Assembly (NCBI GenBank): GCA_030668875.1
Contig: DAOVER010000003.1
Span: 30,001-62,000, forward strand
Origin: Candidatus Heimdallarchaeota archaeon
Lineage (GTDB): Archaea; Asgardarchaeota; Heimdallarchaeia; Heimdallarchaeales; Heimdallarchaeaceae
Reading direction: 5' to 3'
DNA length: 32,000 bases
Shown here: positions 2,194 through 3,666 of the stretch, one piece after another
How positions within the stretch are numbered: the first letter of the stretch is position 1
How the letters are laid out: each line of letters begins with the position of its first letter
Translations under genes and position numbers: made by a program
The notes under the pieces: generated by a model
Seen by the model: the letters and a program-made list of their open reading frames with translations, nothing else
What the model was told of the DNA's origin: nothing
Databases searched by the model: none

Positions 2194-3666
2194 TCATAAG
2201 CATCTATCTACAGCTGAAGAACCCTTTTCATCATATTCTACTTTCGTTACCCAGAGGTTTCTTTCATTGAAAAGTTTCAAAGAAGCAAGAATTGAACCCC
2301 CTATCCAACTTTTGATTAATCTGTTTCTATCAGCTTTAACCTTAATTTCTATATGATTTGGAAGTTTGCTTCTAATATCTGAATAGAATCTTTCCTTGAA
2401 ACCTCTATATAATGTGCCTCCACCAATTAGAACAATATTTGATAAAACAACTTTAAGTAAATCTGAATCGCATTTCTGAGCAGATTCTATTACGGCATCA
2501 GTTAGATCTCCAAGTTCTCCTGTTACACTTAAAGGTTCATTTCGGAATAGTATTTCAGGTGCTTTATACAAAATTTCTTCATATTTTACGAAATCGTTAT
2601 TGATGATATTTGCAGACCTTATCTGTCTATCTGTTTTCTGCCAAATCTGTTTTTCTTTCTTTGGGTTTTCAGAAACATAGCACAATTCTTCAGTAGCATA
2701 TCGAATGTTGCTATCTATGATACTTTTTTGATTTGGGGTGCTTTTAGAATGAGCGATATGTTTGTTAGTATAGTCTTTCATCAATCTAGTAACATCATTT
2801 GCTCCTGTATCTCGAATACTAACACTGTGAGTAATTAACCAACCATCGTAAATGGGAAGGATTCTAGTTGCTGAAGCCCCAATATTTACGATTAATCCTG
2901 TTACATTTCCATCAGCATAAAGAGACAATAACTCTTTTATCGCAAAATACATCTTGGAAACGTTAAATTGGTCAAAAAGAACTCTAGCAATTTTCCTTCT
3001 AATTACCTTTGTTTGGTCATAAACTCCAACATAATCAAGCGCTTCTTCCTCACGAAGAATATTTTTTGCTTTTTCAGGTAACGTAGAATTGTTTATCACA
3101 TCCTTTTTTCCTTTAAGGGAATCAACATATTTGTCCATTTGTGGTCTCTCAAGAATCAGTATTGCTATCTTCGAAGGGTCTACTTCCATTTTCTCGAAGA
3201 TATGACTAAAGAAAATCTCAAGATGTTTAAGGTCTATTTTCTCTTCAATAATGTCTGTATCAAGATAAATAGAAACTTTTTTGATAATTTTCTTCTTTGC
3301 TTTAATATTTGAATGTTGAATAAATGTATCTCCTTCTGCAGAATAAAATATTGTAGATTCAAAGATGTACCTCGGTTGATTTTCTCCTGCGAACCCTACT
3401 TTGGTGAAGCTTGATCCTAAGTCAATTACCATAATTGTTGGGTTCTTTATTTTTTCAACCAATTGGACATTCTCTTCTAGAATCTTTAGACCTCTCTGTA
3501 ATTTCATAAGATCAGTATTTTTCAAGAACTTCGAACATTGTTCACAATAATAACCAATTGTGATCCACTTGCGTTGTTCTGTTCCCTTCCTTATATAGAC
3601 TCTTTGCATAGCTTTTCCACAATGTTTTGGTCTGGTTTTTTGCAGTTTTTCTGGCACTTTTTCCAC
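2194..3666 (-). CDS. Divergent actin-family (actin-related) protein with an N-terminal Zn-binding extension
   Basis: Collinear actin motifs: VIDLGSSFTKVGFAGENQPR, LSLYADGNVTG, PIYDG, EELCYV, KAPEILF, KCDSDL, NIVLIGGGTLYRG and WIGGSILASL...WVTKVEYDEKGSSAVDRCL. Confidence 0.9.
   Translation of the reverse strand: MEKVPEKLQKTRPKHCGKAMQRVYIRKGTEQRKWITIGYYCEQCSKFLKNTDLMKLQRGLKILEENVQLVEKIKNPTIMVIDLGSSFTKVGFAGENQPRYIFESTIFYSAEGDTFIQHSNIKAKKKIIKKVSIYLDTDIIEEKIDLKHLEIFFSHIFEKMEVDPSKIAILILERPQMDKYVDSLKGKKDVINNSTLPEKAKNILREEEALDYVGVYDQTKVIRRKIARVLFDQFNVSKMYFAIKELLSLYADGNVTGLIVNIGASATRILPIYDGWLITHSVSIRDTGANDVTRLMKDYTNKHIAHSKSTPNQKSIIDSNIRYATEELCYVSENPKKEKQIWQKTDRQIRSANIINNDFVKYEEILYKAPEILFRNEPLSVTGELGDLTDAVIESAQKCDSDLLKVVLSNIVLIGGGTLYRGFKERFYSDIRSKLPNHIEIKVKADRNRLIKSWIGGSILASLKLFNERNLWVTKVEYDEKGSSAVDRCL

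Follow-up and report, generated by a model that had tools for sequence, protein, structure and literature searches.

What role is left for an actin-related protein (ARP) with a rebuilt catalytic site in an archaeon that also encodes two canonical actins? The question is raised by a gene on the minus strand of a 32,000-nucleotide stretch of DNA from Candidatus Heimdallarchaeota archaeon (contig DAOVER010000003.1, positions 30,001 to 62,000), which is called the window below. The answer that currently seems best is tentative, and we would give it slightly less than an even chance: the ARP would bind nucleotide, hydrolyze it poorly and form no F-actin-type filaments, and a zinc-ribbon head at its N-terminus would bind boxes in front of its own promoter, which would result in at least autoregulation. 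We infer from the sequence both the zinc binding and, above all, the role of the ribbon as the binder of the boxes. In the same way we infer that the protein is a pseudoenzyme and non-polymerizing, two terms that a preliminary description of this DNA had applied to it. The gene and the signal for its translation are as follows:

2194..3657, minus strand: coding sequence of the zinc-ribbon ARP, complete, with 487 codons, a stop codon and a GTG start codon at 3657-3655 (open reading frame list and translation)
3663..3667, minus strand: Shine-Dalgarno-like GGTGG, 5 nt before the GTG start (read from the sequence)

The minus-strand open reading frame (ORF) 2194-3666 comprises 490 codons when it is counted from the first GTG. 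Translation almost certainly begins at the second GTG (3657): it follows a GGTGG, it is where the database twin P0002 starts, and in close orthologues an ATG occupies this very position. GGTGG or GGGTG in front of the start is conserved in these close orthologues. P0002 has 487 amino acids (aa) and differs from the window product at residue 75 only (I in the window, T in P0002); it was used as a stand-in for the window product in several analyses, and the 487-aa numbering is used throughout. The preliminary description had placed the gene at 2194-3435. A minus-strand actin-family ORF does end at 2194, but these coordinates cut off 75 conserved residues at the N-terminus. In database records the orthologues are merely labeled "actin family protein".

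The part of the protein on which that description was based is an actin:

2197..3435, minus strand: complete actin fold, residues 75-487 (Pfam Actin, AF2 model, Foldseek)

The Pfam profile Actin (PF00022, curated cut-off 27 bits) matches residues 78-488 of the 490-aa ORF over profile positions 6-407 of 410, with 202.6 bits and an E-value of 1.1e-59; MreB_Mbl is a weak second match (E 0.11). The AF2 model has a mean predicted local distance difference test score (pLDDT) of 83.5 and a predicted template modeling score (pTM) of 0.80. Foldseek aligns it to actin chains with target-normalized template modeling (TM) scores of 0.86-0.88 and E-values of about 3e-31, in agreement with a four-subdomain actin fold. 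Together these results bear out the proposed membership in the actin family. The best sequence matches in the PDB are the Asgard "HC1 actin" 9wc4 (2.6e-50) and then Arp1 (3.9e-48), and HMMER aligns the ARP to its PDB relatives over residues 77-109 and 223-488 only.

The genome (3.2 Mb, 92% complete) contains three actin-family genes, two of which are canonical, with scores of 449 and 434 bits versus 198 bits for the ARP. The canonical actins (G000:C78:7349-8458, locus L001, and G000:C16:2176-3288, locus L002) have 378 aa each and retain every catalytic residue; they are 83% identical to each other and thus represent a duplication of the conserved Asgard actin itself. The phylogeny was analyzed with a quick tree of 113 rows and a careful tree of 42 rows (LG+C20+F+G4), which included Asgard actins and Arp1. 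The ARP family forms a clade with 100/100 support and a stem of about 1.2 substitutions per site. In both trees it lies outside the clade of the Heimdall actins, which has 100/99 support of its own in the 42-row tree. It also lies outside the Arp1 clade and attaches near other divergent Asgard actin-like sequences. The ARP does not group inside the canonical Asgard actins, and the view that it is a separate paralogue rather than the filament actin has held up: the genome has two intact canonical actins, the family is a separate clade, Q137, D154 and H161 of actin (actin numbering) are replaced throughout the family, and the positions of filament contacts have diverged.

The canonical Asgard actin (Lokiactin or "asgardactin 01", with the organism's own two copies and PDB 9wc4) and the ARP have the Pfam family and the four-subdomain fold in common. 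The ARP and the Heimdall actins also have in common the phosphate-1 motif F-T-K, the motif G-E-x-Q-P-R, and a C-terminus that is one residue shorter and ends with -R-C-I/L. However, the ARP is only about 31% identical to canonical Asgard actin, its Q137, D154, H161 and D-loop are replaced, it carries a 41-aa insert and a 75-aa zinc-ribbon head in addition, and it evolves far faster. When the family was forced to be the sister of the Heimdall actins in the 42-row tree, the cost was 8.9 log-likelihood units and the approximately unbiased (AU) test gave p 0.105. A recent duplication followed by rapid divergence is therefore possible, because the sister relation is not rejected and the details shared with the Heimdall actins fit to it.

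The distribution of the family is narrow. An exhaustive profile search against 1.8 billion representatives retrieved only two to four clusters (50% identity) that match over the full length, followed at about 230 bits by ordinary single-domain actins. The best match of every later hit, including a few proteins with several matching stretches at 239-302 bits, was confined to the C-terminal half of the profile (positions about 216-486). With the N-terminal half as query, 20 of 399 Asgard genomes yielded strong matches: 17 of the 24 genomes of the genus of the window, both genomes from a second genus, and a single one from another family of the same order (Heimdallarchaeales). With this query the ARP was not found in three other genera of the same family, including two closed genomes that contain canonical actin. 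The ARP is thus not a general regulator of actin, since it occurs in only about 20 of the 399 genomes and was not found in these two closed ones. The same query also gave weak matches, located in the phosphate-1 region, to further unusually long actin-family ORFs from different Asgard families (G276:C169, G274:C347 and G245:C12 with 507-512 aa, G237:C4 and G397:C7 with 673-700 aa), which probably represent further ARP classes with extensions or inserts. P0202, an ARP of 376 aa that has "DLGS..TKVGFAGE" and "-RCL" in common with the family, was considered as a close relative and rejected, as it is only 29% identical and retains D154, D157 and G158.

A fast-evolving third copy might be a decaying actin duplicate without function, and the identities among orthologues, 37-88% compared to 93-100% for actins of the Heimdall group (with the exception of the organism's second copy, 83%), are what such a copy could show. 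However, the ORF is intact in about 20 genomes with products of 481-490 aa, and the family-specific parts as well as the promoter element are conserved. In comparison with the two closest orthologues, the ratio of nonsynonymous to synonymous substitution rates (dN/dS) is 0.14 for the whole gene, 0.10-0.13 for the ribbon and 0.21-0.28, thus below 0.3, even for the insert. The gene is judged to be functional rather than a relic because this ratio indicates purifying selection, and functionless decay can be regarded as effectively refuted.

If the gene is functional, can its product still use ATP? The ARP was aligned with MAFFT to eukaryotic actin (a near-canonical sequence), Arp1 and the two canonical actins of the genome, and residue counts were taken from 30 orthologues. 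Two segments of the nucleotide site stand out:

2932..2937, minus strand: K241-E242, aligned with actin Q137-A138; Q137 is lost and E242 is invariant in the family
2863..2886, minus strand: remodeled phosphate-2 loop N258-I-G260-A-S-A-T264-R265 (actin D154-S-G-D-G-V-T-H161; residue table)

The substitutions that had been read from a hand alignment are all found in the MAFFT alignment, namely Q137 to K241 (K244 in the preliminary description, which used the numbering of the 490-aa ORF), D154 to N258, D157 to A261, G158 to S262 and H161 to R265. The absence of the EHG motif with H73 and the retention of WIGGSILASL and of the penultimate Cys were recovered as well. The assignments are unambiguous because the flanking G156 and T160 and the "LSLYA" helix are invariant. 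In the family the position of H161 is R in 30 of 30 orthologues, D154 is replaced by N (20), G (5), S (4) or H (1), D157 by A (19), S (6) and others, and at the position of Q137 the orthologues have G (17), K (10), E (2) or, in a single case, Q. The positions of G158, S14 and G15 vary freely and accept even K, R, F and Y (G15 is S, C, N, Y or K). All seven residues are present in both canonical actins of the organism. The phosphate-1 motif, which had been described as retained, is retained in D11, G13 and K18, which are invariant, but not in S14 and G15. Invariant or nearly so are D11, G13, K18, G156, T160, R210, E214, G301, G302, Y306 and W340. Within the phosphate-2 loop G260, T264 and R265 are invariant and positions 258 and 261-263 are variable; P0298, a more distant ARP, has also lost G156 and G158.

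The site is thus remodeled and not simply decayed: the adenosine pocket and the anchors for Mg and phosphate are kept, and the set of residues that activates the water is gone. With its adenosine pocket, D11 and K18 invariant, the actin fold would still bind an adenine nucleotide, and hydrolysis would be slow or nil, because the canonical set Q137/D154/H161 is missing. Two new residues at the site are invariant, E242 at the position of A138 and R265 at the position of H161. In MreB, ParM and Hsp70 a catalytic Glu lies one residue before the position of E242, and bacterial actin homologues hydrolyze ATP with a Glu near this position. The protein could therefore be an active ATPase, or a filament former, or both, with a site re-wired around E242, R265 and N258. 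The invariance of E242, R265, T264, D79 and K86, the intact adenosine pocket and the strong purifying selection across the whole fold would fit to such an enzyme. However, the residues lining the phosphates (S14, G15, D157, G158 and V159) vary freely and include bulky and charged ones, position 137 is G in more than half of the orthologues, P0298 manages without G156 and G158, and the overall pattern resembles a relaxed constraint on the chemistry of the gamma-phosphate. We regard an active enzyme of this kind as improbable.

Filament formation can be judged from two further segments and from the contact faces. The segments are:

3004..3144 (within residues 172-218), minus strand: family-specific insert of 41 aa at actin 111/112, in subdomain 1 (segment lengths and alignment)
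3298..3339, minus strand: D-loop-equivalent segment in subdomain 2, residues about 107-120, replaced and 4-6 residues shorter (alignment and segment lengths)

The ARP is longer than actin by 41 aa at actin 111/112, by 5 aa near actin 200 and by 2 aa near 262. The segment from E107 to R116 has 51 residues in 30 of 30 family members, compared to 10 in actins and Arp1. The conserved residues of the insert follow the pattern L-K-G183-R-x-D-V-I-N-N-S-T-L193-P194-E-K-A-K198, two short helices are modeled by AF2 (pLDDT 62-93), and a Pfam search with the insert alone retrieved no family. In F-actin, residues 110-115 form an inter-strand contact. The insert should therefore clash with a two-stranded filament. 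The D-loop segment, which had been described as shortened and unrelated, is indeed replaced and shorter, but the shortening is modest: it has 13 residues, whereas eukaryotic actin has 17 and the organism's own actin 19 (48 versus 52-54 residues for subdomain 2 as a whole). The replacement has a motif of its own, G-x-x-F112-I113-Q114, in which F112, I113 and Q114 are at least 90% conserved.

The family consensus was also compared with the organism's own actin at the filament contacts. With contact lists from published F-actin structures, the barbed-end face is 66% identical (79% similar), the lateral contacts are 18% identical and the pointed-end face is 3% identical, against a background identity of 49% in subdomain 1, 40% in subdomain 3, 24% in subdomain 4 and 11% in subdomain 2. 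This suggests that an actin-like groove is kept, which could accept a D-loop or a partner helix, and that the features for pointed-end extension and strand pairing are lost. Filaments of the two-stranded F-actin type would not be formed, given the loss of the contacts at the pointed face and between strands and the position of the insert at the inter-strand site. The barbed-end groove would be kept for a docking partner, either the D-loop of actin or a helix of another protein.

These features could also belong to a purely cytoskeletal ARP, as the preliminary description had proposed in outline, a monomeric or capping paralogue that docks with its groove on the pointed end of a Heimdall actin filament or on actin monomers and serves as a cap, nucleation seed or scaffold. 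The conserved barbed face next to a diverged pointed face and the loss of catalytic residues are both in agreement with this. Several eukaryotic ARPs have lost catalytic residues. Asgard genomes, furthermore, are known to encode ARPs beside Lokiactin (PMC9834061). However, the occurrence in only about 20 of 399 Asgard genomes, and the failure to find the ARP in the two closed genomes of the same family in which canonical actin is present, speak against a general actin regulator. Further difficulties come from the N-terminus and the upstream region, for which this explanation has to assume that the ribbon is an anchor for protein or membrane and that the boxes belong to a separate transcription factor.

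What, then, is the N-terminal part that the preliminary description had cut off? It consists of two segments:

3520..3630, minus strand: basic zinc-ribbon-like module, residues 10-46, P-K-H12-C13-G-K-x-M17 ... Y21-I-R-K-G-T ... R29-K-W31 ... G35-Y-Y-C38-x-x-C41
3436..3519, minus strand: helical linker between ribbon and actin fold, residues 47-74 (AF2 helix 47-61/69, low to moderate pLDDT)

The complete motif of the head reads P-K-H-C-G-K-x-M-x-R-x-Y-I-R-K-G-T-x-x-R-K-W-x-x-x-G-Y-Y-C-x-x-C. No other segment of the protein is as strongly conserved as the head. Across 26 sequences it has 14 invariant columns, and H12, C13, C38 and C41 are invariant. It is strongly basic (net charge +9, range +6 to +11, isoelectric point about 10). 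Residues 11-50 are modeled with a pLDDT of about 85-92 as a three-stranded sheet (strands 18-23, 31-37 and 44-46) with two knuckles, and the head modeled in this way resembles a zinc ribbon whose first knuckle is atypical. The linker is the least constrained region of the protein (dN/dS 0.33-0.44). The head alone matched no family in Pfam (best E 0.12), yielded no usable match in the Atlas, and has no paralogous copy that could be found in the organism's own genome. A search for stand-alone ribbons retrieved only four short proteins, two of them with Actin Pfam matches, which look like fragments at contig ends. Among the weak and non-significant rows of the fold search were the DNA-binding zinc ribbons of large serine recombinases, MqsA and Zf-GRF.

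When a profile was made from the head only, it matched just the ARP family and two further proteins, P0300 (L034:2521-3989, on a JGI metagenome contig) and its relative P0301. In both, the same H-C...C-x2-C module is joined to an unrelated domain (about 390 aa), which has no Pfam family and a weak Atlas lead to BtrH_N/peptidase-C39-like proteins. The head of P0298, the divergent ARP of 500 aa, closely resembles that of P0300. In a genome of a related genus without ARP (G014, L026:2353-2988), the slot between the DUF1015 and ApbA genes is filled by a DUF2225 protein. This protein was considered as a source of the ribbon and dropped, as its two knuckles are of the ordinary C-x2-C type and it bears no likeness to the ARP head.

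A basic head of this type leads to the question of whether there is DNA for it to bind. Upstream of the gene the following elements were found:

3714..3757, no strand assigned: three palindromic boxes upstream of the ARP gene, spacing 18 and 16 bp, 57-98 nt before the start
3746-3757: box 1, ATGATATACCAT, part of the upstream array
3729-3738: box 2, CGATATATCG, part of the upstream array
3714-3721: box 3, GATATACC, part of the upstream array
3696..3703, minus strand: TATA-like element TTTAATAA; box 3 ends 10 bp upstream of it (read from the sequence)

The consensus of the boxes is GATATAYC or, in the longer form, ATG(A/G)TATA(C/T)CAT. The element TTTAATAA is a putative archaeal TATA box, and at this position a block T-T-T-A-(A/T)-T-A-A is conserved in the alignment of orthologous loci. 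The paired-box pattern occurs only once in the 3.2-Mb genome, upstream of the ARP gene (zero occurrences of the reversed pattern as a control), and the 12-mer of box 1 is also found only once. The boxes are invariant in 12 orthologous loci, among which the intergenic flanks cannot be aligned, the proteins are down to 37-50% identical and synonymous sites are saturated. They were found in front of every orthologue examined. A search for paired boxes in 46 genomes of the order revealed that 19 of the 23 genomes with a match have one directly upstream of the ARP gene. In the most distant ARP genome, which belongs to another family (37% identity), two exact boxes are present 68-96 nt upstream. Additional matches in relatives (G018:C63, G024:C153 and G020:C9) lie inside coding regions and were taken as chance hits that are conserved as coding sequence; the matches in G034:C170 and G021:C44 have near-identical sequences. 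Because the boxes are absent from the DUF1015 loci of genomes without ARP, they belong to the ARP gene and not to the neighboring DUF1015 gene.

In the second genus (loci L010 and L011 of genomes G012 and G011, about 100-270 nt ahead of the ARP start) the array is organized differently: TGATATACCATATGCTAA is repeated three times in tandem farther upstream, a further box is present, and another, ATGATATACCATG, overlaps the start codon. It was also considered whether ribbon residue 30 (K, E or S) co-varies with the half-sites of the boxes (GATA or GGTA); the pattern was not clean and the lineages were too few, so that it was not used.

Taken together, the ribbon head, the 41-aa insert and the unique boxes shift the likely role from a purely cytoskeletal scaffold to a DNA-linked, self-regulated protein. 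The zinc-ribbon head would tether the ARP to the ATG(A/G)TATA(C/T)CAT/GATATAYC boxes in front of its own promoter and so achieve at least autoregulation, and the actin fold would be a body that responds to a ligand or partner and has a free barbed-end groove. A purely cytoskeletal ARP leaves unexplained why the only paired-box array of the genome is located at the ARP gene with no regulator gene nearby, and why the basic ribbon is more conserved than the actin fold. We consider it the less probable explanation, at roughly one chance in four.

The boxes of P0300 are consistent with the head as their reader. Within about 150 bp upstream of this gene there are four ATG(A/G)TAT(A/T)(C/T)CAT boxes of the ATGRTATAYCAT type (0.26 were expected, and four were reached in none of 200 shuffles), and three boxes are present upstream of P0298. 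Several observations, however, weigh against binding of the boxes by the head or against the proposed state of the actin fold. The upstream and 5' coding regions of P0300 and P0298 align at 78%, so that boxes and head were probably copied together as one unit onto another gene. The P0300 case is thus not an independent support for a head that reads the boxes, and its loss is in favor of the cytoskeletal explanation. The boxes could also be bound by another transcription factor, whose gene lies in a different part of the genome. In the first knuckle H and C are adjacent, in contrast to C-x2-C, and a comparison of the head model with PDB folds yielded nothing significant (best VIA Z 3.7 with a root mean square deviation of 5.9 over 63 aligned residues, Foldseek E 0.5). 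With respect to the actin fold, the site may be altered and not dead, because E242 and R265 are invariant and E242 is next to the catalytic-Glu position of MreB, ParM and Hsp70. The conserved F112-I113-Q114 motif may leave room for a family-specific longitudinal contact, and the face comparison depends on contact lists from published structures.

If the head does bind the boxes, a larger assembly can also be envisaged. In ParMRC, the type II partition system, iterated boxes (parC) precede the actin-like gene and serve both as operator and as the point of attachment, and each replicon has one such site. The zinc-ribbon ARP could be a fused ParM/ParR-like device that assembles on its boxes as on a centromere-like site, polymerizes via family-specific contacts and moves or anchors the locus. 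A single box array per genome directly upstream of an actin-like gene, the fusion of a DNA-binding-type module to the actin fold, the conserved hydrophobic motif in the D-loop replacement and the conserved barbed groove are all what such a device would require. The box spacing of 16-18 bp corresponds to about 54-61 Å and is thus near the actin-strand repeat of 55 Å, which is so far no more than numerology. On the other hand, there are only three boxes, the residues for ATP hydrolysis that drive the dynamics of ParM are lost, conservation with actin is lacking at the lateral and pointed faces, the DNA-binding part would belong to the same chain and not to a separate ParR, and the locus shows ordinary conserved chromosomal synteny with no plasmid or mobile element. 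Membership in the ParM family was not found, as the Pfam scan lists only Actin and the weak MreB_Mbl match, and there is no adaptor gene among the neighbors. Such a device therefore has a low probability. The same low probability is given to the broader idea that the actin fold is the body of a sequence-specific DNA-binding protein that assembles on three operator-like boxes about one actin subunit apart, at one chromosomal position beside its own gene, be it a fused ParM/ParR-like protein or a proto-"nuclear ARP".

The tethered, self-regulated ARP that we tentatively prefer can be compared with several known proteins. The eukaryotic Arp1 (centractin), the second-best PDB match, is similar in having L at the position of actin K336. 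In contrast, Arp1 keeps all catalytic residues, forms a filament and has neither zinc ribbon nor insert, and its 100/100 clade excludes the ARP family. The nuclear ARPs Arp4 and Arp8 are non-polymerizing actin folds with impaired hydrolysis and class-specific insertions, and their barbed-end groove binds a partner helix; in Arp8 a basic N-terminal extension has been implicated in DNA contact. The analogy is loose, and the head of the Heimdall ARP is not disordered like such an extension but a zinc-ribbon-like module. From its narrow distribution the family would seem to have a recent, independent origin. In design, the ARP also resembles the ROK repressors NagC, Mlc and XylR, in which a DNA-binding winged-helix head is combined with an inactive sensor of the ASKHA fold (acetate and sugar kinases, Hsc70, actin) and which are autoregulated at palindromic operators. 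This is a likeness of design only, consisting of a putative DNA-binding head, a probably inactive ASKHA-fold body and palindromic boxes at the own promoter. ROK proteins have a winged helix and a fold of the sugar kinase type, whereas the ARP has a zinc-ribbon-like head, a eukaryote-like actin fold and, as far as was found, only one box cluster in the genome, and neither the winged helix nor the ROK domain of ROK-type families is listed in its Pfam scan.

Asgard ARPs are known as a class ("asgardactin 01-05"), L. ossiferum contains three ARPs beside Lokiactin (PMC9834061), and in published trees some members of the class are positioned close to ARP10 or ARP3. No Asgard ARP is known to have a described function. 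A description of the zinc-ribbon-fused Heimdall ARP or its boxes was not found in the literature that was searched. If its head binds the boxes, it would be the first archaeal actin-fold protein that is tied directly to DNA. The actin fold would then have been recruited to DNA-linked roles also outside the eukaryotes, in their close archaeal relatives. However, the family is confined to a few uncultured genera of the Heimdallarchaeales and may be a recent, lineage-specific invention, so that its bearing on eukaryogenesis would be indirect.

The ARP gene is monocistronic and is part of a conserved synteny of metabolic genes (DUF1015, ARP, ApbA, 2-hydroxyacid dehydrogenase and aminotransferase). 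Neither a transcription factor or other regulator gene nor an adaptor gene was found in this conserved neighborhood. A mobile-element origin of the ARP was considered and rejected, since composition is uniform and the chromosomal synteny is conserved. In a search of sequencing runs, only DNA contigs of marine-sediment and cold-seep metagenomes were found to carry the stretch, and no RNA datasets were listed.

Several other genes of the window deserve mention. An ORF of 249 aa at 10648-11397 (plus strand), about 7 kb from the ARP gene, has the N-terminal domain of serine recombinases (Resolvase); there is nevertheless no sign of the ARP being on a mobile element, because the synteny around it is conserved. 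An ORF of 83 aa at 5613-5864 (minus strand) directly follows the gene of a luciferase-like oxidoreductase at 5866-6798 (minus strand), and its 80-aa counterparts in related loci have a weak Pfam match to PP-binding (acyl carrier protein, ACP). Three overlapping genes at 7545-10393 (minus strand) have the Pfam matches AIRC, Ni_insertion and PP-loop and represent a larB/larC/larE-like set for the nickel-pincer cofactor. In a closed genome of a relative, the intact DUF1015 copy is followed about 1.5 kb downstream by a second and shorter match (G015:C1:729254-730246), which covers query residues 97-426 at 69% identity, contains one TAG in frame and is possibly a broken duplicate.

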